From an uncultured Chthonomonadaceae bacterium (GTDB taxonomy: Bacteria > Armatimonadota > Chthonomonadetes > Chthonomonadales > CAJBBX01): DNA of 64,000 nt. The DNA lies in assembly GCA_964519955.1 (NCBI GenBank), contig CAZFLM010000008.1, positions 4,732 to 68,731 of the forward strand. The letters are read 5' to 3'. Made by a program: the position numbers and the translations under genes. The notes beneath the pieces are model-generated. The model was not told the DNA's origin. It searched no databases and saw nothing but the letters and a program-made list of their open reading frames with translations. Shown here one piece after another: positions 2,062 to 29,281 of the stretch (position 1 is its first letter; every line of letters begins with the position of its first letter).

Positions 2062-3729
2062 CTACTCGGCCAGGCCGAGCAACTCGCGCGCGGCGCGGCG
2101 TACGGCCTCGGTCGTCTCGGCGCCGGACAGCATGCGAGCCAGCTCCTCGATCCGCTCATCCTGGCTGAGCGGCGAGACCGATACGGTGGTGCGCTCGCCC
2201 GCGACCTGCTTCTCGATGTAGAGGTGCGTGTCGCCCCGCCCAGCGATCTGCGGCAGGTGCGTGATGCACAGCACCTGGGCGCCGCGCGCCAGAGCGCTCA
2301 GCTTGTCCGCGATGACGCCCGCCGTGCGCCCGCCCACGCCGGTGTCGATCTCGTCGAACACCATCGTCGGCAGCGGGTCGCGCCGGGCCATCGCGCTCTT
2401 GATGGCCAGCATCACGCGCGACAGCTCGCCGCCGGACGCGATCTTGGCCAGCGGGCGCAGCGGCTCGCCGGGGTTCGGCGAGATGAGGAACTCGACCCGG
2501 TCCGCGCCCCGCGCTGTTGGCTCGCAGGGCTCCAGTGACACCTCGAAGCGCGTGCGCGCCATGCCCAGGTCGGCCAGTTCGGCGAGCACGGCCTCCGCGA
2601 ACGCCTGACCCTTCCGTCGCCGCAGCTCGCTCAGCCGCCCCGCCCTGTCCGTGTACTCGGCCTCAACCCGCGCGATCTCGGCGTCCAGCTCTGCCCCGCG
2701 CTCCTCGCTGTGCGTCAGGGCGTTCAGCTTCTCGGTGGTCGCCTGGCCGTAGGCCACCACCTCGTCGAGAGTGTCGCCGTACTTCCGCTTGAGGCTCCGC
2801 AGCATCTCCAGCCGCTCCTCGACCTGCTCCAGCCGCTCGGGGTCCAGTTCCACCGAGTCCGCATAGCGCCGCAGATCGTGGGCGACCTCCTCCGCCTCGT
2901 AGCGCGCGGCGTTCAGGGCCTCCAGGATCGGGCGCACCCGGTCATCGAGGTCGGCGATGTCCTCCAGCGCGCGGGCCGCCTGCGCCAGCGAATCGACGGC
3001 GCCTCCGCCCTCGCCCGATAGCCCGTCGCTTGCCGCTGCGGCGGCCTCGCCGAGCCGCTGGGCGTTCGCTAGGCGCTTGGCGTCCGCCTCCAGCTCCTCG
3101 TCCTCACCGGGTCTGGGGGCTGCCTCGCCGATCTCGTTCACCTGGAAGGAGTAGAGGTCGACGAGGTGCGCACGCTCGCGGGCGTCCCGCGCGAGGTTGT
3201 CGCGCTCCTCCCGCAGGCGGCATGCTACCTCGTAGGTCTCGGCGACCTGCTCGCGGAGCGCCAGCACCTCCGGCCCGCCCCAGCCATCCAGGATGTCGAG
3301 GTGGCGCGGCACGGAGAGGAGCGACTGGTGGTCGTGCTGGCCGTGGAGGTCGACGAGGTCCTCGGCGAGCGCGCGGAGTTGGCCGATCGTAGCGGGGCGT
3401 CCGCCGATGCGAGCGGACGACTTGCCGCCGCCGGCGATCTCCCGCGTGATGAGCAGCTCGCCGTCGTCGCACTCGAAGCCGGCATCCGCCAGCGCGGCCG
3501 CGATGTGGTCGGCGCCTTCGAGATCGAAGACGCCGTCCACGATGGCGCGGTCCGCGCCGCCTCGCACGACCTCGGCGCCGACGCGCCCGCCGAGGATGGC
3601 CGTCAGCGCGTCGATGAGGATCGACTTGCCCGCGCCCGTCTCACCCGTCAACACGTTCAGTCCCGGGCCGAAGGACACATCGAGCCGGTCGATGATCGCG
3701 AAGTTGCGGATGGCAAGGGCACGCAGCAT
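2062..3729 (-). CDS. recN: DNA repair protein RecN
   Basis: MLRALAIRNFAIIDRLDVSFGPGLNVLTGETGAGKSILIDAL Walker A/SMC-like N-terminus, coiled-coil middle, and a C-terminal ASGGELSRVMLAIK signature with VFDEIDTGVGG Walker B. ATG at 3729 chosen; the upstream 75 codons of the track ORF look non-coding. Confidence 0.93.
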   Translation of the reverse strand: MLRALAIRNFAIIDRLDVSFGPGLNVLTGETGAGKSILIDALTAILGGRVGAEVVRGGADRAIVDGVFDLEGADHIAAALADAGFECDDGELLITREIAGGGKSSARIGGRPATIGQLRALAEDLVDLHGQHDHQSLLSVPRHLDILDGWGGPEVLALREQVAETYEVACRLREERDNLARDARERAHLVDLYSFQVNEIGEAAPRPGEDEELEADAKRLANAQRLGEAAAAASDGLSGEGGGAVDSLAQAARALEDIADLDDRVRPILEALNAARYEAEEVAHDLRRYADSVELDPERLEQVEERLEMLRSLKRKYGDTLDEVVAYGQATTEKLNALTHSEERGAELDAEIARVEAEYTDRAGRLSELRRRKGQAFAEAVLAELADLGMARTRFEVSLEPCEPTARGADRVEFLISPNPGEPLRPLAKIASGGELSRVMLAIKSAMARRDPLPTMVFDEIDTGVGGRTAGVIADKLSALARGAQVLCITHLPQIAGRGDTHLYIEKQVAGERTTVSVSPLSQDERIEELARMLSGAETTEAVRRAARELLGLAE

Positions 3730-3736
3730 GGCGGTG

Positions 3737-5659
3737 CTATGGCCAGAACGCGTAGGTCGGATTGCCCGAGGCGATGCCGTAGATAGTCCACAGACTGCCC
3801 AGGACGCACTCGCCGAGGATGATCCCCAGGAACAGCGGCAGAGCCTGCCGGTAGGCGCGCAGCCCGCCGTAGCGGAGGATGCAGAGCTTGATGATCCACG
3901 CGACCATGAGCGGCAGCCAGAGCAGGCCCAGCGACCACGAGCTGGATACGGCATAGCCGACGGGGTGGAACGGGAACCAGGCTACCCGCAGGCGCAGCAT
4001 GTTGAGCAGCAGCGTGACACCGAGGCCGACGCCGATCGCTACCTGCGTGTTGAACTGCTGCTGCTTCGGCGAGGGGGTGCTGACCCAGCCGGACATGCGG
4101 TTCCACGGCTCGCCGCCGAAGATCATCTGCACGTTCGGGGGAGCGACCTTCTCCGCCGCGCCCACCTGGTAGGTCTGGTGCAGGTCCGCCCAGAACGCGC
4201 AGAGGGCGCCGAACACGATGGCGAGCAGCATCGCGCCGAACAGCGGCCGGTACTTGCCGCCGATGCGCTCGGCCATCTTGAAGCCCTCGAGCTGGATCGG
4301 CATCGGGTGCGAGCGGTACGCCCGGTTGAAGCCGTAGAACATCGAGAACATCGCCAGGTCGGAGCGCGGGATCTGGTTGGAGTTGGTGATCGCCGGGATG
4401 ATCGAGTCCGGCCCGGCCATGTGCAGGTCGTGGGCAGGCGGGCCCAACTCCGCCCGCATGCGGGTGATGGCGATGGCCAGCGTGAAGTAGATCGCGAAGA
4501 ACGCGCCGATGTACGTCCAGCTCATCTTGCAGGCGTAGCAGAAGCCGAAGATGGCCGCGCACCCGACGACGATGCCGATGACCGCCAGCCGGTAGGGGAG
4601 GGCCTCACGCGCGTCGCCCAGGTCAGTCTTCCAGTTGAGCATGCCCTGGAAGATACGCACGAAGTGGCTGCGGCTCACGTAGAGCGCGAACAGCGCGAGG
4701 CCGCAGTAGGCCCCGAACGACTGCGCTTCCTTGTACGGGAAGCCCGGGATCTCCGAGTAGCCGAACATGGCCCCGAAGACCGATTCCGCACGCCACACCC
4801 AGGCGAAGAACCACACCGAGAAGAGCAGGTCGACCGGCAGCAGCATGCCCAGCGCCACGCCGAACGGGTAGATGGCGATCGGCGTCCACCCGATGGCGTT
4901 CCACGGCGGCTGCGTGACGTACGTGTTCAGGTCCTGCGCCCCGTCGAAGCGCTTGAGCGGCAGCAGCGGAAGCTGCGGGTACATGTACGCCAGCCCGTTC
5001 CACATGTGGAGACTGCCCGCAACCGCGATGCCCCACCAGAACAGCTTGTTCTTGAAGAGCTGTGTCTTCGGGCTCACCATCTCGAGCGGCAGCGCCACGA
5101 GCGGGTAGGACAGGCGCTCGTTCTCGGTCCACTGCCGGCGCAGCAGCGTGTTGATGCACAGCATCACCAGCACGAGGAGCGAGAGGAAGGCGGTCCAACT
5201 CAGGACCGGGGTCAGCCACACACGGATGTTGTGCCACGTGTAGAACGACCCGGTGCCGATGTAGAACCCCTCCAGAGCCGTCTTGTCCGACACGGAGAGC
5301 CAGGAGGGCACATAGGGGATGATGTTGGTGGCCCACGCGTTCTCGGGGCGCGCGAAGTAGTGCACGTGCGCCATGATGGGCAGCAGCACCTCGATCATGT
5401 CGTGCCCGGTGATCGCCGATGCCAGCGCAAGCATGATGTAGCACGTTATGAGTTCGCCCGGATCGAGGGCGAGCCGAGGCAGGACGCGCCGTACCAGCGT
5501 GTTCAGGCCGATCAGCACGACGAGCAGGAAGACGACGTTGTAGAACAGCGAGATCGTCGTCGGATGGCCCGCGTACCGGATCACCTCCATGCGGATGACC
5601 CAGTAGGCGTTCAGCGGCATCAACAGCAATGCGATCAGGACCGCGCGCCAGGTCACCAT
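3737..5659 (-). CDS. Large polytopic membrane protein of unknown function (possibly DUF6784/6785-like)
   Basis: 640 aa from the ATG at 5659 (MVTWRAVLIALLLMPLNAYW...). It has more than 12 hydrophobic segments and coding-like composition. The stop lies 8 nt upstream of the recN start. Confidence 0.7.
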   Translation of the reverse strand: MVTWRAVLIALLLMPLNAYWVIRMEVIRYAGHPTTISLFYNVVFLLVVLIGLNTLVRRVLPRLALDPGELITCYIMLALASAITGHDMIEVLLPIMAHVHYFARPENAWATNIIPYVPSWLSVSDKTALEGFYIGTGSFYTWHNIRVWLTPVLSWTAFLSLLVLVMLCINTLLRRQWTENERLSYPLVALPLEMVSPKTQLFKNKLFWWGIAVAGSLHMWNGLAYMYPQLPLLPLKRFDGAQDLNTYVTQPPWNAIGWTPIAIYPFGVALGMLLPVDLLFSVWFFAWVWRAESVFGAMFGYSEIPGFPYKEAQSFGAYCGLALFALYVSRSHFVRIFQGMLNWKTDLGDAREALPYRLAVIGIVVGCAAIFGFCYACKMSWTYIGAFFAIYFTLAIAITRMRAELGPPAHDLHMAGPDSIIPAITNSNQIPRSDLAMFSMFYGFNRAYRSHPMPIQLEGFKMAERIGGKYRPLFGAMLLAIVFGALCAFWADLHQTYQVGAAEKVAPPNVQMIFGGEPWNRMSGWVSTPSPKQQQFNTQVAIGVGLGVTLLLNMLRLRVAWFPFHPVGYAVSSSWSLGLLWLPLMVAWIIKLCILRYGGLRAYRQALPLFLGIILGECVLGSLWTIYGIASGNPTYAFWP

Positions 5660-5924
5660 GCGGGGATGCCGCTTGCCGGCGGAGGTCTCATCTGTCGGGG
5701 CGGTGTCGGGCCCGCGGCGGGGGTTAAGCAAGGGTATGCCTCGTTGCGTGTGTGTGGTAATGCCAATTTCGTCCTGGCAGTACCGGGTTCCTTCCGGACT
5801 AGCCCAGGATGTGCCCAAACCGGCGCCAACTCATCGGCCAAGCGCGGCATCAGGGCCAATCGGTCCGGTCCGTCCGCTACCGCCCGCGCCGCCGTGGACC
5901 GCCGCCGCCCTCGGCGGCAACCCG

Positions 5925-7046
5925 CTACCCGCCGAACACGTCCTGTACGGCCTCCAGGTACGCCGTGCCGTGCACGGTGTCCGGTAGGAGGTAGCTGCCC
6001 TCCGTCCACTCGTTCCAGGCGTTCAGCGTCACCATGGCGCACTCCGGGTGCCGGGCCGCGTACTCCTTGGCGCGAGCCAGCGCGCGACCGAATGCCTCCG
6101 GGGTGTTGCCGTCGAGGATCGAGGTGAACGGGTAGCCGCGCGCCTCATACGTATCCGAGACGATCGTGCGCGGGCTGGGATCCCATCCCATCGACACGTT
6201 GGGGTAGTACGGCGCCTCGAACCGGGCCGCGTACTCGTCCCATACCGCCGCGTTCCGTTCCAGGGCCCGCTCGTAGCTGCCGCGCGGGAAGCCGTCCGTG
6301 TTCGGGTCGTAGTGGTGTACCCAGGCGTACGAGCCGATGCTGTCGACCCCCAGCTCGCGCACCACGGATGCCGGGTCGTCCAGCTTCAGCTCGCTCGGCA
6401 GGACCGTGACGCCCCAGACGATGGCGTTCAGGTGGAGGCCCGGGTGCCCGGCCCTTCGCGCCATCTCGCGGAACTCGTCGAGCGCGGCGCGCGCCTGGGG
6501 CAGCCCTCCGAGCCCGGAGATGAACGTGCCCAGCTCGTAGATGGAGAAGAAGGGCGCGCCGCCGATCCGCAGGTAGTTCGGCTCCCGGAAGTACCGATCC
6601 ACGCAGGTGGCGGCGATGCGCCGGAACCCTTCCGCGCCGACTCGGCCCGGCGACAGCAAGTCCGGACGGTTGCGCCAACCGATCGGGTGGATGTCGATCC
6701 AGTCGTGGTTCGCCCACATCAGCGCGAACTTCAGCCGCTCGCGGTTGGCCGCCCGCAGGAAGCCCTCTTCGAGCGCGCGCTGAAGGTACGGGCCGTCTTC
6801 GTAGTGGTACCAGTCGAACAGGAAGCTCGTGACGCCGTGGTCCGCGGCCAGGTCGATCTGCCGCGCCGCCCACGCGGGGTCCGCCTCGTCGAAGGCGCCC
6901 CACTCCGGCACGATGGGCTGCGCGTGGCCCTCGAAGCGTGGGCGGGCGCTGCTGACCAACTCCCACTCCGTCCAGCCTGTTCCGTGCCAGCGCTCGTTGC
7001 GCGGATCGACGTGGTAGTTGGGGAAGTAGTAGGCCGCGATCTCCAT
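5925..7046 (-). CDS. WbsX-like glycosyl hydrolase/transferase family protein
   Basis: MEIAAYYFPNYHVDPRNERWHGTGWTEWELV resembles the Glyco_tran_WbsX N-terminal signature (YYFPQ-H..P.N..WWG.GFTEW). An AAGGA RBS lies upstream of the ATG at 7046. Confidence 0.65.
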   Translation of the reverse strand: MEIAAYYFPNYHVDPRNERWHGTGWTEWELVSSARPRFEGHAQPIVPEWGAFDEADPAWAARQIDLAADHGVTSFLFDWYHYEDGPYLQRALEEGFLRAANRERLKFALMWANHDWIDIHPIGWRNRPDLLSPGRVGAEGFRRIAATCVDRYFREPNYLRIGGAPFFSIYELGTFISGLGGLPQARAALDEFREMARRAGHPGLHLNAIVWGVTVLPSELKLDDPASVVRELGVDSIGSYAWVHHYDPNTDGFPRGSYERALERNAAVWDEYAARFEAPYYPNVSMGWDPSPRTIVSDTYEARGYPFTSILDGNTPEAFGRALARAKEYAARHPECAMVTLNAWNEWTEGSYLLPDTVHGTAYLEAVQDVFGG

Positions 7047-7174
7047 CGGTGGCGTCCTTTCGGAGGCGGGCGCACCCGCCATCACTCCACACTACCCGAT
7101 GGCGCGGCTCCCGCGTGCACAGGCCGCGCCGAATGTCGCGCCTCGCTGCTGTGCCCGGCGGCGGCGAGCCGTTC

Positions 7175-13803: not shown

Positions 13804-14562
13804 CTAACTGTTCGGCCCTACCTCGCCGTCCGCCGCGCGCAGCAGGTTCGCCTCGCCATCCTCCGCGGGCCGCAGCAGCACCTCCGCGCCGGGCTCCGCA
13901 GGACGCAGCAGCGTTGCCCCCGCAGCCTCCGTCGCCATGCGCTCCTCGATGGCGGCGATGGCTTCCTCGGCGGCGCGGCGGATATCGTCGACCCAGCCCT
14001 CATCGTTCCCGGCGATGCCGGCGAGCGCAGGCAGGTCACTCCGGTCGCCGACATGCGCCAGTGCGGTGAGCGCGGCCATCACCAGCTCGGCGGGCGCGTC
14101 GTCCTGCCCGGCGGCCGACGGGAGGAGCCTCTGGATGGGCGTGGCGTTGCGCCGGCACAGCAGGGGAGCGTCCTCGGGGCGCACGCGCTGCAGGAGATCG
14201 GCCAGCAGCGGCGCGATCTCGGCGGTGTAGGGCCCCCAGCCGAAGCCGACGCCGCGCTGGTTCATCAGAAGGGGGATAGCCCGCACGTCGCCTGCCCGCG
14301 CGAGTGCGAGGATGGCCTCGCGGTAGGCCTGGCGGTGCGCCTTCAGGCGGCGGATGGCCGTGCGGCCGATGAACCACCCCGCCAAGGCGCCGAGGACAGC
14401 GAAGACGGCGGCCTTGAGCAGCGAGCGGCCGTCCAGAATCGGGGTGACACCCGCCACGATGGCCAGGGTGACGACCGTCGTGATGGCCGAAACCGAGCGC
14501 TGATAGGCAGTCTGCCCGCGCACCACGTCAGCTCTGAGTTGCTCCAGTACCTCCTCGCTCAC
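13804..14562 (-). CDS. LLRP-tail paralog 1: 2-TM, HEAT-like repeat protein with a triple LLRP C-terminal tail
   Basis: GTG at 14562 (VSEEVLEQL...) aligns with MSEEP of paralog 3 and has the same upstream GAGGTG. Two hydrophobic helices. ALTALAHVGDRSDLPALAGIAG is a HEAT-like repeat. Tail: ATLLRPAEPGAEVLLRPAEDGEANLLRAA. Confidence 0.8.
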   Translation of the reverse strand: MSEEVLEQLRADVVRGQTAYQRSVSAITTVVTLAIVAGVTPILDGRSLLKAAVFAVLGALAGWFIGRTAIRRLKAHRQAYREAILALARAGDVRAIPLLMNQRGVGFGWGPYTAEIAPLLADLLQRVRPEDAPLLCRRNATPIQRLLPSAAGQDDAPAELVMAALTALAHVGDRSDLPALAGIAGNDEGWVDDIRRAAEEAIAAIEERMATEAAGATLLRPAEPGAEVLLRPAEDGEANLLRAADGEVGPNS

Positions 14563-14627
14563 CCGCGCACCTCGTTCCGCTGTTGCTCTTCGCCCGAGGC
14601 CGCACGCAGCGCCGAGGCGCCGGCGGC
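14559..14627 (-). pseudogene. Relic of the C-terminus of a further LLRP-tail paralog (truncated by the mazEF cassette)
   Basis: Translates AAGASALRAASGEEQQRNEVRG*, matching the tail EAYLLRAAESEEEQRNEVRG* of the copy ending at 16867. Its TGA overlaps the GTG of paralog 1 (GTGA), as at the intact junctions. Confidence 0.6.
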
Positions 14628-14633
14628 TTACCA

Positions 14634-15020
14634 CTAGGATGGGTTGCCTTCACCGCCTGGGGCAGGCGGGCTGGTCAGACCTAGTGTGTGCGCCAACGCC
14701 TCGTCCACGGTGCTCATCGCCGGCCAGTCGCCGATCAACCTGTCGACCTCGCTGTCGAGGATGGTCGCGATGTTGTCGGTCATGATGACGGAGTCGGTGA
14801 GTAGCCCGCTCTGTTGTCCGGCCGATGAGCGCAGCGCCACCGTCACGCGGCTTCGGTGTCCTGCCCGCGCCATGTTGCTGGTGATCATGGCGACCACCGA
14901 TTGCGGAAGTCCCGTTCCCAGGTCGTCTGCGTGCACGACGAGTGCTGGCCGGCGCTTGGCGGTTCTCAGGTCGCTGTTCGGGAAGAGGACCAGGACGATC
15001 TCGCCCCGCCTACAGGGCAT
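14634..15020 (-). CDS. mazF: Type II toxin, MazF/PemK family endoribonuclease
   Basis: MPCRRGEIVLVLFPNSDLRTAKRRPALVV...VVAMITSN is the typical PemK signature. Its start overlaps the antitoxin stop by 11 nt. Confidence 0.85.
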   Translation of the reverse strand: MPCRRGEIVLVLFPNSDLRTAKRRPALVVHADDLGTGLPQSVVAMITSNMARAGHRSRVTVALRSSAGQQSGLLTDSVIMTDNIATILDSEVDRLIGDWPAMSTVDEALAHTLGLTSPPAPGGEGNPS

Positions 15021-15252
15021 CGTAGACGTCCATGTCCGGGCGGCTCCAGTCACCCGCGAATGCGCTCAGGCGGCCTCGCAGGTCTGCGGCCTGTTCCGGT
15101 CCGATCCCTCGCGCGGCGAGGTCGGTCTCTGCGGCGGAGTCGGCGGTGTCCAGGAGCTGAAGCAGGAACTCGGCGGGCCCGATGCCGCACCTCGTGGCAG
15201 CTCGCCGCAGGCGGGCCTCTTGCTGCGGTGACAGCTCCAGACGCAGTGTCAT
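15010..15252 (-). CDS. Cognate antitoxin (MazE-like position)
   Basis: 81 aa starting MTLRLELSPQQEARLRRAA. A perfect AGGAGG RBS lies 7 nt upstream of the ATG at 15252. It sits immediately upstream of, and overlaps, the toxin gene. Confidence 0.7.
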   Translation of the reverse strand: MTLRLELSPQQEARLRRAATRCGIGPAEFLLQLLDTADSAAETDLAARGIGPEQAADLRGRLSAFAGDWSRPDMDVYDAL

Positions 15253-15273
15253 TGTAGCTACCTCCTGTATTGC

Positions 15274-15302
15274 AGTATACGGCCCGCTCGTGCCCATGTC
15301 AA
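15274..15302 (-). promoter_or_regulatory. Consensus sigma70 promoter of the TA cassette (TTGACA-17-TATACT on the minus strand)
   Basis: On the minus strand: TTGACA (15302-15297), a 17-nt spacer, TATACT (15279-15274), then AGGAGG and the ATG at 15252. Confidence 0.6.
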
Positions 15303-15320
15303 CCGGGGCCTATATGGTGC

Positions 15321-16085
15321 TCACCCGCTCCGATCCGCATCTTCCGCCGCGCGCAGCAGGTTCGCCTCGCCGTCCTCGGCCGGGCGCAGCAGTACCTCCG
15401 CGCCTGGCTCGGCGGGGCGCAGCAGCGTGGCGCCCGCCGCCTCCTGCGCGAGGCGCTCCTCGATGGCGGCGATGGCGTCCTCGGCGGCAGCTCGCAGAAG
15501 TTGGACGGGCTGCGCGTTCGAGTCACAGGCGGCGAGTTGACGCAGCCGTGCCAGGTCCTGCCCGTCGCCTGTGCGCTCCAGCGCCGCGATGGCAGCGAGC
15601 GCCAGTTCCTTCGTCTCCTCCCGGATCGGCAGCGCATTGGGGCGGAATGGGAGAAGCGAGCTGATAGGCCGGCGGAACCGGAGCTGTGTGGACTGGGTTG
15701 GGTCGTCCGCAAGCTTCGTCAGCAGTCCTATCAGTCGCCTCCGCGCCTGGCTCGCGTTGTCGCCCATTGCGTCGATGTAGTATTCGATCAGCCGTGGCAG
15801 TGCCCTCACGTCGCCGAGATCGGCCGCCGAGAACAGGGCGGCGCGAAGGCGCCCGCTGCGCCGGGTCCCGTCCGCGATGCACAGTATCTGGACGCACATC
15901 GGTGGCGCCACATAGAGCATGGCCTGGAGCATGCCCCGCGCTACCGTGCTCGCCGGACAGCGAATGGCGACCGCAAACCCGATCGCGTACCCTGAGAGCG
16001 ATAGCACCCACAGCGCGATCCGGCGAGTCCGGGAAGCCCGCTTGGCTGTGTCTATCAGCGCGTCCGGGTTGCGAGTGGCGTTCAT
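15321..16085 (-). CDS. LLRP-tail paralog 2
   Basis: 254 aa. Two TM helices (IALWVLSLSGYAIGFAVAI; MLQAMLYVAPPMCVQILCIA). HEAT-like AIAALERTGDGQDLARLRQLAA. Tail ATLLRPAEPGAEVLLRPAEDGEANLLRAA. ATGA overlap with the upstream paralog. Confidence 0.8.
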   Translation of the reverse strand: MNATRNPDALIDTAKRASRTRRIALWVLSLSGYAIGFAVAIRCPASTVARGMLQAMLYVAPPMCVQILCIADGTRRSGRLRAALFSAADLGDVRALPRLIEYYIDAMGDNASQARRRLIGLLTKLADDPTQSTQLRFRRPISSLLPFRPNALPIREETKELALAAIAALERTGDGQDLARLRQLAACDSNAQPVQLLRAAAEDAIAAIEERLAQEAAGATLLRPAEPGAEVLLRPAEDGEANLLRAAEDADRSG

Positions 16086-16870
16086 GTGCGCGCCTCACGT
16101 CCCTGATCTTCCGACGCGCGCAGCAGGTTCGCCTCGCCGTCCTCGTCCGGACGCAGCAGCGTCTCCGCGCCAGGCTCAGCGGGTCGCAGCAGCGTGGATC
16201 TCGCGGCTTCCTGCGCCAGGCGGGCCTCGATAGCGGCGGCGGCTTCCGTGGCGGCGCGGCGGATCGGGATGCCCCAGTCCGCGGTCTGGCTCGGAACCGC
16301 CAGCGCCTCGATCCTGTAGAGGTCCCCGCGGCCGCCGATGTGCTTCAGGGCGCTGAGGGCGGCGAGCACGAACGCGGACCGGTCGGCGATGTCGGAAGGC
16401 GCGGTCTCCCCGATCGGGAGCCGCGAACTGATCCTGGCCGCCCACTCAGGGCCCTCCATGCGGGGCGAGCCCGGGCGCACGCGCGGCAGCAGAGCGGTGA
16501 GCAGCTCGTCGACGAGTTGCCGGTCCATGGCGGGGATCAGGCCGGTGCCCGATAGCAGGAGTGGGCGGATGCACCGCACCTCACCACCCCTCGCGGCTCG
16601 CTCGATGGCCTGTGCAAGCCGGCGCCGATGCGCCGCGGCGCCCCCTCGGTTCCGCAGGCGGTACCGTATGCCCCCCGCGAGCACCACCGCAGTCAGTACC
16701 GCCAATAACCGGGTGTCGGACAGGTGCAGCGCAGCGCAGGAGATGAACGCGAACAACGCGATGTTCCCGGTTGTGCTGGCGTCCTTCTGGCATGCGGCGC
16801 ATGCGCGCAGTTGGCGCTGCACCTCCTCCCACAGTGCGTCTCTCTCGGCTCGCGCCGGCTCCTCGCTCAT
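16082..16870 (-). CDS. LLRP-tail paralog 3
   Basis: ATG at 16870 (MSEEPARAERDALWEE...). The upstream 119 codons of the track ORF overlap paralog 4 out of frame. Tail STLLRPAEPGAETLLRPDEDGEANLLRAS. ATGA overlaps at both ends. Confidence 0.8.
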   Translation of the reverse strand: MSEEPARAERDALWEEVQRQLRACAACQKDASTTGNIALFAFISCAALHLSDTRLLAVLTAVVLAGGIRYRLRNRGGAAAHRRRLAQAIERAARGGEVRCIRPLLLSGTGLIPAMDRQLVDELLTALLPRVRPGSPRMEGPEWAARISSRLPIGETAPSDIADRSAFVLAALSALKHIGGRGDLYRIEALAVPSQTADWGIPIRRAATEAAAAIEARLAQEAARSTLLRPAEPGAETLLRPDEDGEANLLRASEDQGREART

Positions 16871-17367
16871 CCGCGCACCTCGTTCCGCTGTTCCTCCTCG
16901 GACTCCGCCGCGCGCAGCAGGTACGCCTCGCCGTCTTCCGCCGGGCGCAGCAGGACCTCCGCGCCGGGCTCCGCGGGCCGGAGCAGCGTGGCGCCCGCGG
17001 CCTCTTGCGCCAGGCGCTCCTCGATGGCGACGATCGCTTCCTCGGCAGCGCGGCGGACCGGGGTGCCCGCGCCCGCGTACTCCTCCTCCTCGGCGAGCAA
17101 GCGGATGCGCGGCAGGTCGCGTGCTCCGCCGACGTGCTTCAGGGCAGACAGGGCGGCGAGGACGAGGGGCTCGTCGGCAGCAGGAGGGCGGGATGCTGGC
17201 CCGCTCGGCAAGAGGCGGGCGATCCAACTCGTCCCGCGCGCATCCAGAGCGGTGCGATGCTCGGGACGCACCGTCGCGAGTAGGTCGATGAGCAGCGCTC
17301 GCCCCTCGGGAGCGTCGGCTCCAAGTCGAGACCCGAGCTGGTAAGCAAGGTGCGGGATCATCGACAC
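16867..17367 (-). CDS. LLRP-tail paralog 4, C-terminal (HEAT-like + tail) half of a split copy
   Basis: 166 aa with no TM segment. ALSALKHVGGARDLPRIRLLAE plus tail ATLLRPAEPGAEVLLRPAEDGEAYLLRAA. It starts 10 nt after the stop of the ORF 17377-17676, which supplies the missing 2-TM part. Confidence 0.7.
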   Translation of the reverse strand: MSMIPHLAYQLGSRLGADAPEGRALLIDLLATVRPEHRTALDARGTSWIARLLPSGPASRPPAADEPLVLAALSALKHVGGARDLPRIRLLAEEEEYAGAGTPVRRAAEEAIVAIEERLAQEAAGATLLRPAEPGAEVLLRPAEDGEAYLLRAAESEEEQRNEVRG

Positions 17368-17376
17368 ATAACCACG

Positions 17377-17676
17377 CTAAGCCGATTCGAACAGGGCGCG
17401 GCGGTGTGCGCGGCTCCGAGCGCGCTGCTCGTGCAAGGCGACCGGCAGACCGACCACGAGGGGTACTGCGATGGGCGAGACCGCAAGCCAGGGCTGGTGC
17501 GCGTAGGTTCGCAGGAGCGACATGACGATGATCGCTGCAATCGTGACGGCGAAAGCCGGCAGCAGCACCAGGTTCCTCAGCCTGTCGTTCCGCCGATCAA
17601 GGCGTTCCAACTCGGCCCAATGGGGCCATACCGCCTCGTCTGCCATCAGCTCGGCCCTTAGCTCTGCTTCGCCCAC
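17377..17676 (-). CDS. LLRP-tail paralog 4, N-terminal 2-TM half of a split copy
   Basis: GGAGG then GTG at 17676 (alternative ATG at 17646). Two TM helices, then RARSRAHRRALFESA*, comparable to AAAHRRRLAQAIERAA of paralog 3. The start position is uncertain. Confidence 0.55.
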   Translation of the reverse strand: MGEAELRAELMADEAVWPHWAELERLDRRNDRLRNLVLLPAFAVTIAAIIVMSLLRTYAHQPWLAVSPIAVPLVVGLPVALHEQRARSRAHRRALFESA

Positions 17677-17703
17677 GTTATCGCCACCTCCGCCCGCCCC
17701 AAT

Positions 17704-17728
17704 CCCCAAGTCCCAAGTCCCAAGTCCC
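17704..17728. repeat. Heptanucleotide tandem repeat (CCCAAGT)x3.4
   Basis: CCCAAGT at 17705, 17712 and 17719, plus a partial copy. Intergenic, between the stop at 17737 and the next start. Confidence 0.85.
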
Positions 17729-17736
17729 GCCGCCGG

Positions 17737-20706
17737 CTACTCCACCACCAGCAGCCAGCCCTTCGCCGGGTCCACCGGGATGGCCTCGTCGAGCCGGAAC
17801 GCGGCGGCAGGCTGGAAGCCCTCGACAGGCGGCGCGGCGATCTTGGCCTTCGACGGGTCCAGGCCGAGCGCCGTCCAGTCGATCGCCAGCTTCACGCTCA
17901 CCTTCGTCTTCGCCCAGCTCGCCAGCGAGATCAGCGTCTTGCCTTCGCGCACGTACGCGGTGGCGAGCACGTCGGCGTTGTTCGTCCGGACCGGGCAGTC
18001 CTTGGCCCAGTAGCCGAACATCTGCGCGCGCTGGATGCCGAACGAGTCCCACAGCGCCCAGATGTGCTTCGGGTCGGCCCCGCTGTAGTAGCGCGCCGTC
18101 ATGCCGTAGACCATGCCGCGCCACGGGTTGCCGTTGTCCTGCAGCATCTCGCCATAGAGGCCGAAGGGGATGCCCGAGACCTCCACGAGCCAGAAGTCCG
18201 GCGTCTCGTTGTAGTCGAAACCCTCGCCGAACCAGATGCTGTCGATGTACGGGAAGTGCTCCATGTATTGCCCGGCGCAGTTGTTGAGGCCGTACTCCGG
18301 GGCGTAGTTGTTGCCCGAGTGGAAGTCGATGAGGCTGCCGGGGCGCGTGCGGTCCATCACCTTGCGCACGCGCTTCATGATCTCGCGGTCGTAGCCGATG
18401 CCGTCCAGGTACAGCCCGTCGATCCGCACGTTCTGCATCAGCCAGCGCAGCCCCTCGAGGTAGGTGTTGTGCCAGCGCGAGAGGCCCACCGTGCCGATGG
18501 CCGCGTCCGTCTCGCCGCCGCCGAGCGGCGTGTGCCAGGCCGGGGCGTAGTTGGAGACGAGATGCTCCTGCAGCCACGAGTCCCCGCCGCCAGGCCCGTC
18601 GGTGAAGACCTCATAGCCCAGGCTGCGCAGCGCGAACAGCTCGGCCACACGGTTGCTCAGCTCGCGGATGGTGTAGTAGATCTTCACCTTCAGCCCGAAC
18701 GCGTGGGCCTCCTTGACGTACGCCGCCATCTTCGCCGTCTCGACGAACGGGTAGTTGATGTACGGGTTCAGCTCGTTGCCCTGGTGCACGTTGATGATGG
18801 AGGCGCCGCTCTCGGCCGCGGTCTTCGGCGGCACCATCTGGTGGTAGTATCGCCAGGCCCAGTGGTTCGGGTCGAGCGGCTTCACGGGCGTGATGAGCAG
18901 GCCGAACCGGTAGCGGACCGTCTGGCCCTTCGTCATGTGGCGCTGTCCGGAGAAGGCGCGAACCAGCACGCGGTCCGCCCCAGCGTCGGCAATGGAGCAC
19001 CCGCCGTGCCCCGAGTTGCCCCACGAGTCCGGGATGCCCGCCGCTCTCAGGTTGTAAAGGTCCCAGGTGTCCTGCTCGCCCTTCAGCTTGAGCTGGAGCC
19101 CGCCATCGGCCTCGCCGACCCAGACGTAGTTGTTCGCCCGCTCGATGTTCCACTGCCACTCCCACTTCGGCGGCCGGTAGCCTCCCTTGCGGCCCATGCC
19201 CATCAGGTAGGTCGCGGCCTCGCGGCGCATCGGCACCTCCAGGCGGATGTCCGTCAGGTCGGTGTCGGCCAGCGCCGTGACGGCGACCTCGACGGTAAGG
19301 TAGCCGTCGGCCTCCATCCTCGTGTGGCACTGAGCGGCCAGCGGCTTCGACGCCCACTCGGAGAGCAGCTCCACTACCGCGGGCGCCTTGCTGACCACCT
19401 TGTAGCCGCCCGCCTTCCACACCACCGGGCCGGCCTGCGTCTCGGCGGCCAGGGCCATCGGCGCGGCCAGGATCTCGCGGTCCCCGGCGCGGATGCCGGC
19501 GGGCAGCCCGCTCGGCCCGAACGTCACCACGCGGCCGAGGCATCGGATCGCCTTCTGCTTGGGGTCGACCACCAGCGGCGTATACGGCGCCACCACCTGC
19601 TCGTCCAGGCCAATGGTGGAATCGAGCCAGCCCAGACGCGCAAGCCGCGTGTTGTCGTCGACACCGGCGTCCGGCGCGATCTCGCTGCCCACCGTCAGCC
19701 GGATCGGAACGGAGCGCCGCGGGACGCCTTTGCCCGACACCACCGCCGTGATGCGGTACTCCCCGGGCTTCGCGGCGGCCGGCACGCGGATCAGGCACCA
19801 GAACGCCTGGACCTTTCCCTGCGGCACGTTCACCCACTTGGTGATGGCGCGCCCCAGCCAGTCGGTCCCGCCCAGGTTCAGGCACCGGATGTCCGTGGCC
19901 TGCAGCGTCGAGCCCTTGACGCCCGAGAGGCTGAACGCGACCCCGACGTCCTTCACCTCCGTCCGCGCCGCCCACAGCCCGATCTGGAACACGACGCACT
20001 CGCCGCGTGCGCCCTTCAGCTCCAGGGATGTCGGGTTCTCGCCGCGCACCCAGCGCAGTGGCAACTCGTCTGCCATGCGGATGGGGTGGGCGGTGTCCTC
20101 CGGGAAGAGCAGGTAGCGCTCCGATGCGTGCTTGGCCAGGTACTCCTGCACCTCCGCCGGGGTTGCGCAGACCTCCATCGGGTCGAACCGGTGGAACTCG
20201 CCCCGCGCCTGGATCGCCCGCACCTCCGCGTCCGGCAGGCTGTCCCACCGCTTGGCGTCGAACCGGCCCGGGGCGAGTCCGTTGCGCTCCGCCCACACCG
20301 GGTCCGGATGCGCCTCGCTCGCCGGCACGTAGGTCACGGTGGGGAAGTACGGCGAGCCGGCGGTGGTGGAGGGGAGGTAGTAGAACGCGTAGTCGCCGGG
20401 CACAGCCGTGGGCCGGAACGCGAAGCACCCCGCTTCGCGGTCGACGTGGTAGGGCACGACGTCGGCCGTCTCCTTGCCCGCAGTCAGATCGACCAGCACC
20501 ACCTGCACGCGCTCGGGATGCGCATCCCTGCGCCGCCACGGGATGCGCACCCGCGCCGCGTCGGTCTGCGTCGCCACGTGGACCAGCGCGCGGTGGTTGC
20601 CGTACTTGGCATCCCACTCGGCGACTGAGCGCGGCGGCTCCTGGGCTCGTGCGGTCACGGCCAGACCTGCCAGCGCGACGAGCGCGATGGTGCGATGCTG
20701 AGGCAT
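17737..20706 (-). CDS. Secreted putative glycoside hydrolase (TIM-barrel, GH123/DUF4091-like)
   Basis: GGAGGG then ATG at 20706. MPQHRTIALVALAGLAVTARAQ is a signal peptide. The C-terminal KIYYTIRELSN...IDGLYLDGIGYDREIMKRVRKV...IDFHSGNNY pattern recalls GHL/DUF4091 catalytic domains. Family call from memory. Confidence 0.55.
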   Translation of the reverse strand: MPQHRTIALVALAGLAVTARAQEPPRSVAEWDAKYGNHRALVHVATQTDAARVRIPWRRRDAHPERVQVVLVDLTAGKETADVVPYHVDREAGCFAFRPTAVPGDYAFYYLPSTTAGSPYFPTVTYVPASEAHPDPVWAERNGLAPGRFDAKRWDSLPDAEVRAIQARGEFHRFDPMEVCATPAEVQEYLAKHASERYLLFPEDTAHPIRMADELPLRWVRGENPTSLELKGARGECVVFQIGLWAARTEVKDVGVAFSLSGVKGSTLQATDIRCLNLGGTDWLGRAITKWVNVPQGKVQAFWCLIRVPAAAKPGEYRITAVVSGKGVPRRSVPIRLTVGSEIAPDAGVDDNTRLARLGWLDSTIGLDEQVVAPYTPLVVDPKQKAIRCLGRVVTFGPSGLPAGIRAGDREILAAPMALAAETQAGPVVWKAGGYKVVSKAPAVVELLSEWASKPLAAQCHTRMEADGYLTVEVAVTALADTDLTDIRLEVPMRREAATYLMGMGRKGGYRPPKWEWQWNIERANNYVWVGEADGGLQLKLKGEQDTWDLYNLRAAGIPDSWGNSGHGGCSIADAGADRVLVRAFSGQRHMTKGQTVRYRFGLLITPVKPLDPNHWAWRYYHQMVPPKTAAESGASIINVHQGNELNPYINYPFVETAKMAAYVKEAHAFGLKVKIYYTIRELSNRVAELFALRSLGYEVFTDGPGGGDSWLQEHLVSNYAPAWHTPLGGGETDAAIGTVGLSRWHNTYLEGLRWLMQNVRIDGLYLDGIGYDREIMKRVRKVMDRTRPGSLIDFHSGNNYAPEYGLNNCAGQYMEHFPYIDSIWFGEGFDYNETPDFWLVEVSGIPFGLYGEMLQDNGNPWRGMVYGMTARYYSGADPKHIWALWDSFGIQRAQMFGYWAKDCPVRTNNADVLATAYVREGKTLISLASWAKTKVSVKLAIDWTALGLDPSKAKIAAPPVEGFQPAAAFRLDEAIPVDPAKGWLLVVE

Positions 20707-20908
20707 GGGTGGGTCCCTCCGTGCCGGCGCGGCTGGGCGAGCGCGCGAGCGTGTGGCCAAGGCGTGTTCGTGGGCGCCGGGTTCATGCGGTGCAGTTCGT
20801 CGCGGCTGGCGGAGGCACCTGCCACGCGAAGCCGGCCGCGACCGTATGGTAGGCTGAGCACCGCTGACAAGCGGCCGATCACTCTCGCACCAGAGGAGCT
20901 ACCCGACG

Positions 20909-25183: not shown

Positions 25184-26059
25184 TCACGCCGCCGTGGGCG
25201 CCGCCGCTGGTTCGGGCGGCCGGTTGTCCTGGTGCAGTTGGTTGCGGCCGGCCCGCTTGGCCGAGTAGAGCGACCGGTCGGCGTCTCGCAGCATGTCCTC
25301 GATCGTCCCGGTCGGCTTCTCGTACGTCACCGCGCCGACGCTGAAGGTGACCGGCCAGCCGTGCCGCCGCATCTCGCCCAGCAGGCGCTCTCGCACGCGC
25401 TCGATGCCGCACCGGCTCGGCGCCTCGGCGGTCTCCGGAAGCACCAGGGCGAACTCGTCGCCGCCCAGCCGCGCCACGATGTCGGTCGACCGCGTCTCGG
25501 TCGCCAGCGTCTGCCCAATTGTGCGCAAGCACTGGTCGCCCACGCTGTGGCCGAGCGTGTCATTGAGGTCCTTGAAGTGGTCGCAGTCGATCACCGCGAC
25601 GGTGAAGGGACGTCCGTAGCGTGCGCACCGGGCCAACTCGCGCCGTGCGATCTCGTAGAAGCCCGCGACGTTGGCGATGCCAGTCAGGTGATCGATGCGC
25701 GCGGCAAGCGTCTCCGCGGCGAGCTTGTCGCGCAAAGAGACGAGCGTCGCGACGCAGAACCCGAAGAAGACGGTGGTCGCGGCGGCGTTCCACACCTCGA
25801 TGTGCAGGCGCTCTCCGGGCAGCCCTGCCGCGACGTCGGTCAGCAGATTGGCGGCGATGCAGGCGGAGGCAGTCAGCATACCGGGACCCACCCCCATGCG
25901 CCACGCGACGAGGCTGATGGGAAGCAGGTAGAAGGGGCCGAGTTGGGCTTCGTAGCCGGAGAGGAAGTCCGTGTAGCCAATGGCGACGACGATCAGCGCG
26001 GCGAAGAGGACAGCCGTGCTCCGGCGGCAGTTCGTGAGGGTGTCCAGTAAGTGAGCCAT
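25184..26059 (-). CDS. Membrane-anchored diguanylate cyclase (GGDEF)
   Basis: ATG at 26059 (MAHLLDTLT...). 3-4 TM helices. IDHLTGIANVAGFYE...VIDCDHFKDLNDTLGHSVGD...RSTDIVARLGGDEFALVL has both the GGDEF motif and an RxxD I-site. Confidence 0.9.
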   Translation of the reverse strand: MAHLLDTLTNCRRSTAVLFAALIVVAIGYTDFLSGYEAQLGPFYLLPISLVAWRMGVGPGMLTASACIAANLLTDVAAGLPGERLHIEVWNAAATTVFFGFCVATLVSLRDKLAAETLAARIDHLTGIANVAGFYEIARRELARCARYGRPFTVAVIDCDHFKDLNDTLGHSVGDQCLRTIGQTLATETRSTDIVARLGGDEFALVLPETAEAPSRCGIERVRERLLGEMRRHGWPVTFSVGAVTYEKPTGTIEDMLRDADRSLYSAKRAGRNQLHQDNRPPEPAAAPTAA

Positions 26060-26169: not shown

Positions 26170-26973
26170 CTACGTGCCCGGGCGGTTGGATTGTGCCTGC
26201 TGCTCTTCGGCGGGCCGCAGCAGGTGCTCCGTTTCGGCGGCAGGTGCGCCGGCCGCCGGGCGAAGCAGCGTCTCGGCAACCGGTGCTGCGGCAGGGCGCA
26301 GCAGCACGTGGCGGGTGCCGGCCTCCTCGGCCAGTTCGGCGAGTTCGTCGCGCACCTCCGCCGCGGTTGAGGCCAGCTCCGGGTCGGTCCGCGAGCGCGC
26401 AAGCGCCTCGATCATCGGCAGGGCGCGGGTGTCTTGCGCGATGGCGATGGCGCGGAGGGTTGCGAGAACCAGCCGCCGGTGAGCGGCGCTGTCGCGGGGG
26501 CGTGCCCGCTCGATGACCTCGAGGAGCGCGGCGCGCGCGGACCGGCTCAGGAGGCCGACTTCGGTGGAGCTGAACTCCATGAACGCGCTTGCCAGCCGGC
26601 CATCGGCGGAGCGCAGCACATCGAGGTCGTACTCGCCCGGGCTCGCGGCGGAGGCCGCGTCGGCCCATGCCGTCTCAACCCGGATCGCCTCGCGTACCAG
26701 GCGCGAGGCGCGCCAGCCGCAGACCAACTGGCGGGCCGCGAGGGCAGCCATACCCGCCGCCCAACAGATCGCCATCGCCGTTTGCTCACCGCGAGCGAGG
26801 TGCCACCCCTGGCTGGCCGCGAGCGCACACACCATGCCGAGCACGCCCATGACGCAGGCGAACCCAACCAGCACATGGCCGCCGAGGAACGTGCGCCTCA
26901 GGCGGCGCAGAAGCGCGTCTATACGAGCCGCGCACTCATCGTCCTGCTTGTCCAGGTCCGCGCTGCCGCACAT
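26170..26973 (-). CDS. LLRP-tail paralog 5
   Basis: ATG at 26973. Two TM helices. HEAT-like TLRAIAIAQDTRALPMIEALAR. Tail HVLLRPAAAPVAETLLRPAAGAPAAETEHLLRPA. Confidence 0.75.
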   Translation of the reverse strand: MCGSADLDKQDDECAARIDALLRRLRRTFLGGHVLVGFACVMGVLGMVCALAASQGWHLARGEQTAMAICWAAGMAALAARQLVCGWRASRLVREAIRVETAWADAASAASPGEYDLDVLRSADGRLASAFMEFSSTEVGLLSRSARAALLEVIERARPRDSAAHRRLVLATLRAIAIAQDTRALPMIEALARSRTDPELASTAAEVRDELAELAEEAGTRHVLLRPAAAPVAETLLRPAAGAPAAETEHLLRPAEEQQAQSNRPGT

Positions 26974-27790
26974 GCTGTTCGGCCTCCACTCCCGATGGGT
27001 TTGACGGCCGCAGCAGGTGCTCCGTTTCGGCGGCAGGTGCGCCGGCCGCCGGGCGAAGCAGCGTCTCGGCAACCGGTGCTGCGGCAGGGCGCAGCAGCAC
27101 GTGGCGGGTGCCGTGCTGGTCGGCGAACTGGCCCATCACCCCTGCGATCCCCTGCGCTGCTTCGCGCACCTCAGGATGCTGCGCCGCCGCCCCGACGTGC
27201 TCGATGGCGGGTAGGCTGGCCAGGTTTCCCAGGTAGAACAGTGTCTCGACCACGGCGATCGCGAACTGCGGATCGTCGGCATCGGTGAGGCGCGAAGCCG
27301 CCCCCGTCAGCAATGGCCCAAGGTGGCCGGTCGCGCATGCCGGTGGCCCCGCAAGCTGATTGCGCGCGAACAGCCCGCGCAGGAGCCGGGCGACCGTCTG
27401 CTGTGCCGCACGCCGCTCGCGCTGCGCCTCCTCACCCAACTCGGCTGTCGGCCCGTGCGTGCAGAAGGGGCCGGCCGCCCGCTCGACTGCGCCCAGGCAC
27501 CGCATGACCCGCAGCCCCGCAGCCCAATCCGATAGGAGCGACCAGGTCGGCGCCACGATCAGGGCCGCCAGGCCGGCATACAGGACAGCCGCGGCCGGGC
27601 TGCGGCCGTGGACCAGGAGCTGCAGAACGAGAGCCAGACCCACCAGCCCCGCGCCTGTCCATCGGATCCGGTCCGCGAGCCTCTGTGCTCGCCGCGCCCG
27701 CGCTGCCGCCGCCAGAGCGCTGTGGGCCGAGCGCTCGACGCGAGCCAGGCCGTTGCTCTCCCCACATCCTGTCGGCTGCGCGCCGTGCAA
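26936..27790 (-). CDS. LLRP-tail paralog 6
   Basis: TTG at 27790 preceded by AAGGGGG. Two TM helices. VETLFYLGNLASLPAIEHVGAA. Tail HVLLRPAAAPVAETLLRPAAGAPAAETEHLLRPS. Overlaps the paralog 5 start by 38 nt. Confidence 0.7.
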   Translation of the reverse strand: MHGAQPTGCGESNGLARVERSAHSALAAAARARRAQRLADRIRWTGAGLVGLALVLQLLVHGRSPAAAVLYAGLAALIVAPTWSLLSDWAAGLRVMRCLGAVERAAGPFCTHGPTAELGEEAQRERRAAQQTVARLLRGLFARNQLAGPPACATGHLGPLLTGAASRLTDADDPQFAIAVVETLFYLGNLASLPAIEHVGAAAQHPEVREAAQGIAGVMGQFADQHGTRHVLLRPAAAPVAETLLRPAAGAPAAETEHLLRPSNPSGVEAEQHVRQRGPGQAGR

Positions 27791-27862
27791 GTCGGTTGGC
27801 CCCCTTTCGACGTGAGGAACGATCGCTGCAAGTGGTGCGATTGCATCCTCCGCTTTGCCCCC

Positions 27863-29035: not shown

Positions 29036-29281
29036 GGCGTTGGCTGGCTGCCAGGCAGTGCGCTGCTGCCGGGCGAGCCGTTCTGCGCCGGCCCTCTACT
29101 TCGCCGCCGGGCGCGGTGGTCCCTCCGCCGTGGAGGGGCTGTTTCGGACCCCCTGGGTGCGGTGCGCAGGTTCCATGTTGCAAACAGCGGGCGGACGTGG
29201 AATAGGGGCATACAGAGGCGTTCCCCCCGGACGCACATGGACGCTACCACCTGCCGCTGCAAGGACGCTACATTGAAGGGG

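Follow-up and report, generated by a model that had tools for sequence, protein, structure and literature searches.

Short alpha-solenoids of the PBS-lyase HEAT type are known from CpcE/CpcF, from NblB and from the designed alphaRep proteins. The proteins described here are encoded several times in a 64-kb stretch of DNA from an uncultured Chthonomonadaceae bacterium (the window, meaning the whole analysed stretch of 64,000 nucleotides), and they share with these known proteins a short, predicted cytoplasmic alpha-solenoid. The PBS-lyase-type HEAT proteins are soluble, however, and possess neither the transmembrane hairpin nor the tail with three leucine-leucine-arginine motifs, the triple-LLR tail, which are found in the proteins of the window. 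With the LPXTG, PEP-CTERM and GlyGly-CTERM tags, the LLR tail has in common that a short conserved motif is located close to the C-terminus of many paralogues of one genome. Such sorting tags belong to exported proteins and consist of a motif, a transmembrane helix behind it and a cluster of basic residues, whereas the LLR tail is acidic, has no membrane-spanning segment and, by prediction, lies in the cytoplasm; it is not a sorting signal of the sortase or exosortase type. A resemblance to the acidic-dileucine sorting motif was also considered and was dropped as a poor fit. In SspB, a C-terminal ClpX-binding peptide tethers the adaptor of an AAA+ protease. The LLR family may follow a similar logic, in which a folded specificity domain is connected through a flexible linker to a short hydrophobic-basic peptide that docks onto a common machine. 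There is, however, no sequence relationship between the two peptides, and the LLR tail differs in that it contains three distinct motifs at fixed spacing, is not necessarily C-terminal and belongs to a membrane-anchored carrier. The literature on LLR-type tail motifs and on Chthonomonas HEAT proteins yielded no relevant description. The protein family and its peptide module are undescribed, yet their type is familiar, namely a repeat-domain scaffold whose disordered tail contains a short linear motif.

The protein family and its triple-LLR tail

The six-frame translation of the whole window, which has a G+C content of about 70%, was scanned for LLR[P/A/S]. A triple LLR[P/A] is encoded at the 3′ end of six open reading frames (ORFs), all on the minus strand. 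The loose pattern has 34 matches in the six-frame translation as a whole, and the 18 motif matches in these ORFs make up more than half of them. Four of the ORFs lie within 13804..17676, namely c1 (17676..16867), c2 (16870..16082), c3 (16085..15321) and c4 (14562..13804), and two lie within 26170..27790, namely c5 (27790..26936) and c6 (26973..26170). An earlier note on this DNA, made from the sequence alone, had reported the four copies of the first region; c5 and c6, which overlap each other by 38 nt, are located outside it.

The copies share one architecture. A transmembrane hairpin of helices is followed by three HEAT repeats of the PBS type and a capping helix, and the protein closes with a disordered tail in which LLR[P/A] occurs three times. 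The bodies of c1–c6 are 23–34% identical, and the last approximately 50 residues of c1–c4 are 68–100% identical. The AlphaFold2 (AF2) model of c4, obtained from an alignment of 75 sequences, has a predicted local distance difference test (pLDDT) score of 83. It consists of a transmembrane hairpin at residues 3–89, formed by the helices 3–44 and 48–89, a HEAT solenoid at residues 95–218 and a disordered tail at residues 219–252 (tail pLDDT 55–61). In the model of the canonical relative P0063 (108 sequences, pLDDT 90), the capping helix 212–248 runs through motif 1, so that this motif is modelled as the end of the helix, and motifs 2 and 3 are disordered. These models, together with the profile matches to alphaRep and CpcE/F given below, bear out the architecture of two transmembrane helices, HEAT-like repeats and tail that had been proposed from the sequence. 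According to hydropathy and charge counts, the loop of the hairpin is short and poor in lysine and arginine, and both of its flanks are rich in these residues, in the window copies as well as across the family. By the positive-inside rule this fits an N-in/C-in orientation, and the hairpin is predicted to reside in the inner membrane with the HEAT domain and the tail in the cytoplasm, as had been expected for the tail.

No well-characterised family claims these proteins in hidden Markov model (HMM) searches, and neither a named family nor a sorting signal that matches the tail was found in Pfam, NCBIfam, PADLOC or the literature, in accordance with the earlier observation. The family profile matches HEAT structures only, namely alphaRep chains (up to 1e-42) and CpcE/F (5n3u; 4e-6 and 2e-5), and a Foldseek search of the PDB returned only generic HEAT/ARM/alphaRep folds, none of them at E<=0.001. 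The window copies stay below the Pfam thresholds of HEAT_2 (PF13646) and HEAT_PBS (PF03130), which many of the homologues pass; c4 alone obtains scores (HEAT_2, 25.6 bits against a cut-off of 27.7; HEAT_PBS, 14.8 against 20.9), and the other copies give no match. The NCBIfam scans of the window copies and of canonical members gave nothing above cut-off. Scores against the phycobilin lyase models of CpcE/CpcF/NblB stay well under the thresholds (15–46 bits against 220–330, the best being 46 against 330), the window copies give no such match, and a bilin-lyase role is not implied. The PADLOC anti-phage defence models did not match c2–c6 or two canonical family members at E<=0.01.

The initial, word-indexed homology search, for which the six copies served as queries, led no further than this genome and a single distant protein, P0005, which comes from a metagenome-assembled genome (MAG) of the Chthonomonadales. 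P0005 is matched by the profile of the window copies at 1.4e-5, and its use as the query led to 87 proteins. The family had been missed in the first search because of the word index, and it was revealed by the P0005 query and by an exhaustive profile search. The latter, an hmmsearch against 1.84 billion cluster representatives, gave 28,413, 10,688 and 2,470 matches at E<=1e-3, 1e-10 and 1e-30, respectively, the first of these tiers probably including generic HEAT proteins. The profile of the window copies aligns with that of 24 canonical Chthonomonadaceae members in hhalign over 177 columns (probability 99.2%, E 7.7e-20), and each of the three motifs is in register. The window copies are thus members of a family with profile similarity over the HEAT domain, the capping helix and the tail, and with two adjacent hydrophobic helices, flanked by regions rich in lysine and arginine, N-terminal to the HEAT domain. 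In all six of them the capping helix is followed by three motifs of the LLR[P/A] type, although at an atypical spacing: the start-to-start distances of 11/11 in c1–c4 and 12/15 in c5–c6 are at the short end of the family range. Many of the best-scoring members, P0092–P0123 and similar proteins of about 480–610 aa, have an extra N-terminal region of approximately 230–300 residues, which contains a further hydrophobic segment in several of them and has no Pfam match.

The relaxed triple-LLR pattern is matched by 206 of 217 family sequences, so that the lineage-specific accident that would have been signalled by homologues lacking the triplet is not observed. Motifs 1 and 2 are spaced by 14 residues in 114 of these 206 sequences, and motifs 2 and 3 by 15 residues in 131 of them. 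Among 125 new top matches, 75 contain three and 41 contain two strict LLR[P/A] motifs within the last 90 residues. The description of the tail as three copies of one short motif is right as to the number of motifs, but each of them has its own flavour and their spacing is nearly fixed. Family-wide, the flavours are (R-A-S-Q)-T-L-L-R-A-S-S for motif 1, [D/E]-x-L-L-R-P-A for motif 2 and T-[D/P]-P-[E/D]-Q-L-L-R-[A/P] for motif 3, and the consensus of the tail, which is about 40 residues long, is TLLRAS-x8-LLRPA-x10-LLR[P/A], with spacers rich in Ala, Pro, Ser, Glu and Thr. Even members with no more than 21–31% identity retain the three motifs and their spacing. Judged by this conservation at the sequence level, the tail is the hallmark of the family. 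The median number of residues after motif 3 is 8. One subfamily has a conserved extension of about 43 residues, extensions of 43–83 residues are seen in some subfamilies, and P0194 and P0199 contain a further HEAT unit after the tail. A free C-terminus is therefore not needed.

All named members of the family belong to the Chthonomonadales or the Chthonomonadaceae (Armatimonadota). The genome scan was made with a 24-sequence sub-alignment and with the pattern [AG]LEQ[IV]GD.., which is specific to a subgroup, and its all-Chthonomonadales result is therefore biased. The DAHP synthase encoded in the window is 75–77% identical to named Chthonomonadales proteins. The organism of the window is thus itself a member of the Chthonomonadales, a planctomycete origin is rejected on this evidence, and cross-phylum conservation cannot be claimed.

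The tail is also found on a protein with a different fold. When 743 ORFs from 52 family loci were screened for the tail pattern, two tail carriers were detected outside the BLAST cluster of the family. One of them is a divergent HEAT protein without a Pfam match above cut-off. The other, encoded in a Chthonomonadaceae MAG (locus L011, 15658..16212, minus strand), is a stand-alone Clp_N protein of 184 aa (PF02861, 5.8e-29) with a triple LLR tail; it ends in SPLLRPADPPAETLLRSVLVPGENDPVQLLRPSVEERGY, and SPLLRPADPPAETLLRSVLVPGENDPVQLLRPS represents the same C-terminal end. A metagenomic relative of this protein (locus L057, 1456..2010, plus strand) is 84% identical and has kept the tail, and a metagenome scan with the Clp_N-tail protein gave two close relatives only. 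The occurrence of the tail on a second fold indicates that it is a module and not a part of the HEAT fold, and suggests that it is portable. Stand-alone homologues of the ClpC N-domain exist, for example mycobacterial ClpC2 (PMC10030653). The Chthonomonadaceae protein likewise consists of a Clp_N domain on its own, to which a peptide segment is attached, whereas ClpC2 has no LLR tail; the comparison concerns this side case and not the genes of the window.

Gene copies, their 3′ ends and their neighbourhoods

In the 29 codons of the tail, c3 and c4 are separated by 10 nucleotide differences, all of them synonymous (synonymous divergence, dS, 0.51; nonsynonymous divergence, dN, 0), in line with the reported synonymous nature of the differences between tails. 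The tail dN/dS is 0–0.05 among c1, c3 and c4 and 0.24–0.44 in the pairs with c2, the tail of which, STLLRPAEPGAETLLRPDEDGEANLLRAS, is the most diverged among c1–c4; a ratio of about 1, which would have spoken against selection on the peptide, is absent. Codon sharing, that is, the use of the same codon at aligned identical residues, was compared with the expectation from the codon usage of the window. It is close to the expectation in the bodies of c1–c4 (observed 0.50, expected 0.48) and exceeds it in their capping helix (0.74 and 0.55) and tail (0.73 and 0.51). The bodies are saturated, which shows that the duplicates are old, and the tail and the capping helix are not. The bodies of c5 and c6 are likewise saturated at synonymous sites, and a run of 108 identical nucleotides extends across their tails (within 26170..27100). 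This run is clearly a gene-conversion tract. Between the tails of c1–c4 and those of c5–c6, codon sharing is at chance (0.47 and 0.44), and the residues L-L-R-P persist. The codon comparisons thus indicate that purifying selection on the peptide and repeated gene conversion of the 3′ ends both keep the tails alike, and the spacers are identical within each group because gene conversion has homogenised the 3′ ends. The earlier conclusion that the peptide and not a DNA repeat is under selection stands with respect to the low dN/dS of the tail, but gene conversion is also at work. The locus is a clean example of two forces, selection on a peptide and gene conversion, acting on one short segment of genes with saturated bodies.

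The copies c1–c4 and a relic of a further copy are arranged on the minus strand, as the earlier note had stated, but the head-to-tail array is interrupted by a toxin-antitoxin gene pair, and one of the four copies reported as full-length-equivalent is split. This copy, c1, has a GTG start with GGAGGTG 8 nt upstream, and its tail codons are at 16992..16906. It contains an in-frame TAG at 17379..17377, which, when the copies are aligned, falls at the first HEAT repeat and which yields a piece with the two transmembrane helices (17676..17377) and a piece with the HEAT domain and the tail (17361/17367..16867). In public gene calls, c1 is represented by its C-terminal piece of 164 aa (P0003) alone. 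c1 is likely a pseudogene or a split gene, and the TAG could also be a sequencing error. The gene c2 encodes 262 aa (tail codons 16198..16112), and its ATG overlaps the stop of c1. The ATG of c3 in turn overlaps the stop of c2; c3 encodes 254 aa (tail codons 15431..15345), and P0001, a variant of it from another sample, differs in 10 of 254 residues, all within residues 27–107.

The interrupting gene pair sits between c3 and the relic. Its first gene (15252..15010, minus strand), which starts at an internal ATG after GGAGG, is mazE-like and encodes a ribbon-helix-helix antitoxin (RHH_10, 4.5e-4, below cut-off). The second gene (15020..14634, minus strand) overlaps the stop of the mazE-like gene by 11 nt and encodes a toxin of the MazF/PemK type, as shown by a PemK_toxin match above the gathering threshold (48.4 bits against 23.1, E 1.2e-12) and by the overlapping RHH-like ORF upstream. 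The relic (14609..14559, minus strand) was read directly. It comprises 17 codons, which correspond to the last 16 codons and the stop of a lost copy, and reads LRAASGEEQQRNEVRG before the stop. Evidently the toxin-antitoxin pair took over the place of most of one former copy and spared the initiation signals of c4 (252 aa, identical to P0002; tail codons 13917..13831), for which the relic still provides GAGGTG and the GTGA overlap.

The reported stop-start overlaps are present at all three junctions, and the ribosome-binding site inside the conserved end of the upstream copy is present at two of them. The c1–c2 junction has an ATGA overlap with GAGGTG 5 nt upstream, within the ...NEVRG-stop end, and the junction of the relic and c4 has a GTGA overlap with the same GAGGTG within ...NEVRG-stop; these two junctions are nearly identical over about 35 nt. 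At the c2–c3 junction, which also has an ATGA overlap, c2 ends in ...REART-stop and the Shine-Dalgarno-like element is GAGG. The stop-start overlaps suggest that neighbouring copies are produced together. In the second region, c5 encodes 284 aa from a TTG start and has the variant tail VLLRPAAAPVAETLLRPAAGAPAAETEHLLRPS, and c6 encodes 267 aa from an ATG which lies 38 nt inside the 3′ end of c5 and is preceded by GGAGG.

The gene preceding c1 is a GH123-like gene (20760..17737, minus strand; PF19543, full length). The spacer between its stop and the start of c1 (approximately 17700..17727, minus strand) contains GGGACTT three times and then GGGGATTGGGG. In the second region, c5 and c6 are flanked by genes of the same strand, one for a histidine kinase of the PAS/HATPase type (29035..27863) and one for a diguanylate cyclase of the GGDEF type (approximately 26059..25184). 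On the other strand, a long ORF (27608..31828) seems to encode HD-type and GGDEF-like regions, judged from a visual reading of its translation. At 3740..5830 (minus strand) the window encodes a DUF6785/DUF6784 protein (6e-163), the gene of which adjoins a WbsX-type glycosyltransferase gene (5928..7091) and a RecN-like SMC_N gene (2065..3981). This neighbourhood is apparently unrelated to the LLR-tail family.

In other genomes the surroundings of the family genes vary. Single Chthonomonadaceae MAGs contain 5–6 separate family loci in a restrictive search. About eight of 50 loci have same-strand arrays of two to five copies, with tandem spacers of 2–6 nt in three of the loci (L006, L007 and L010), and most copies are solitary. 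Among the neighbours are genes for GFO/IDH/MocA oxidoreductases, SDR and GNAT proteins, a MoxR-DUF58-BatA operon, and the gene of an ECF sigma factor accompanied by that of a putative anti-sigma factor. When the 743 ORFs from the 52 loci were clustered, no neighbour family occurred in more than eight loci, and no partner was indicated. In two Chthonomonadaceae loci (L034, 5962..14024; L045, 72..5386), family genes are located between the gene of a MoxR AAA+ ATPase and DUF58/BatA-like genes. The same MoxR operon is present in L049 and L051, where no family gene was detected between MoxR and DUF58.

Candidate roles of the tail

We tentatively favour the reading, which we regard as quite possible though short of probable, that the motifs of the tail together form a composite module for docking, by which variable scaffolds anchored in the membrane would be joined to a single cytoplasmic partner common to all of them. 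The approximately 40-residue tail would act as a single unit and tether many different membrane-anchored HEAT scaffolds to this common partner, and the differences between the paralogues would be supplied by the variable N-terminus, the hairpin and the HEAT surface. On the soluble Clp_N protein, the same module would serve as a portable address tag. The constraint on the tail throughout the family at a fixed geometry, its presence on a second fold and the use of one tail type by many paralogues all point in this direction. From the one Clp_N fusion it might be guessed, weakly, that the partner is an AAA+ chaperone or protease. Several observations weigh against docking to a shared partner. The analysis found no binding partner for the tail, the variable neighbourhoods name none, and AF2 gives no confident structure or docking of the tail. 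The Clp_N fusion is represented by one protein and one close relative, so that portability rests on few cases, and the range of the family is known inside the Chthonomonadales only, from a subgroup-specific pattern. The near-identity of the tails in this genome is partly the result of concerted evolution and taken alone overstates the constraint.

In a further-reaching version, which we consider rather unlikely, the LLR tail would be a lineage-specific portable tag on unrelated folds, with dozens of HEAT scaffolds per genome and the free Clp_N protein plugged into one hub. The hub might be a hexameric AAA+ protein, the symmetry of which would match three motifs at fixed spacing. If this is true, the tagged proteins would form a membrane-organised client/adaptor network with no described counterpart.

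It is unlikely that the tail is instead a degron, an internal degradation signal for an AAA+ protease such as ClpXP, ClpCP, Lon or FtsH, through which the paralogues and the Clp_N protein would undergo shared, regulated turnover. The predicted disorder, exposure and cytoplasmic location of the tail, the hydrophobic-basic core of its motifs and its presence on the Clp_N protein and, in identical form, on paralogues with otherwise divergent bodies would all suit such a signal. However, the motifs need not be terminal, given the extensions of 43–83 residues or a further HEAT unit behind them, the fixed 14/15 spacing and the three flavours exceed what a simple degron needs, and no protease gene is linked to the family loci. 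Still less likely, the tail is a ligand of the family's own HEAT domain, in which case the proteins would assemble head to tail into a membrane lattice and recruit soluble proteins bearing the tail. The grooves of HEAT and ARM proteins often bind extended peptides, the tail nearly always accompanies this HEAT domain, tandem overlapping genes favour co-assembly, and in P0194 and P0199 the tail is followed by another HEAT unit. Against this, the AF2 monomer models, built from 75–108 sequences, do not show the tail docked on the HEAT domain (tail pLDDT 55–61), and most family genes are solitary.

The motifs, chiefly TLLRASS with its R-x-S-S, might also be sites of Ser/Thr phosphorylation or of another modification by which the protein is switched, which we regard as very unlikely. 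After the residue that follows the Arg, motif 1 has Ser at +1 (0.69) and +2 (0.47), and the acidic PAEPGAE/PAEDGEA of the window copies could conceivably mimic phosphate. These copies lack the serines, yet L-L-R is kept in them; in motifs 2 and 3 neither Ser nor Thr is conserved, and no kinase is linked. A translational role, in which ribosomes would be stalled or paced by the tail peptide or by its mRNA so as to control the overlapping downstream copy, is highly improbable. The stop-start overlaps and the ribosome-binding site inside the upstream 3′ end would fit this idea, but most members are solitary and nevertheless bear the tail, the peptide and not the DNA is conserved across the family, the tail ends 5–25 codons before the stop, and it is not known to resemble any ribosome-arrest motif. 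Hardly credible at all is a functionless, low-complexity end rich in Ala, Pro and Glu that was spread by duplication and gene conversion. Gene conversion is evident from the 108-nt run of c5/c6 and from the excess codon sharing among c1–c4. The idea is contradicted, however, by the conservation across the family, in which members of 21–31% identity keep motif and spacing, and by the retained residues of c1–c4 and c5–c6 in the face of chance codon sharing. Taken together, the earlier observation is confirmed with four corrections, and its interpretation, in which the tail is a putative docking or degron motif, is partly supported.

The Armatimonadota are common in soil and little studied. Within them, a family comprising thousands of sequence clusters, with several copies per genome, has had no name, no model and no literature. 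The invariant feature of this family is a short peptide module that is open to direct testing. Once the binding partner of the tail is found, it would assign a role to the whole family, and it may reveal a new way of tethering proteins at the membrane to a shared machine.

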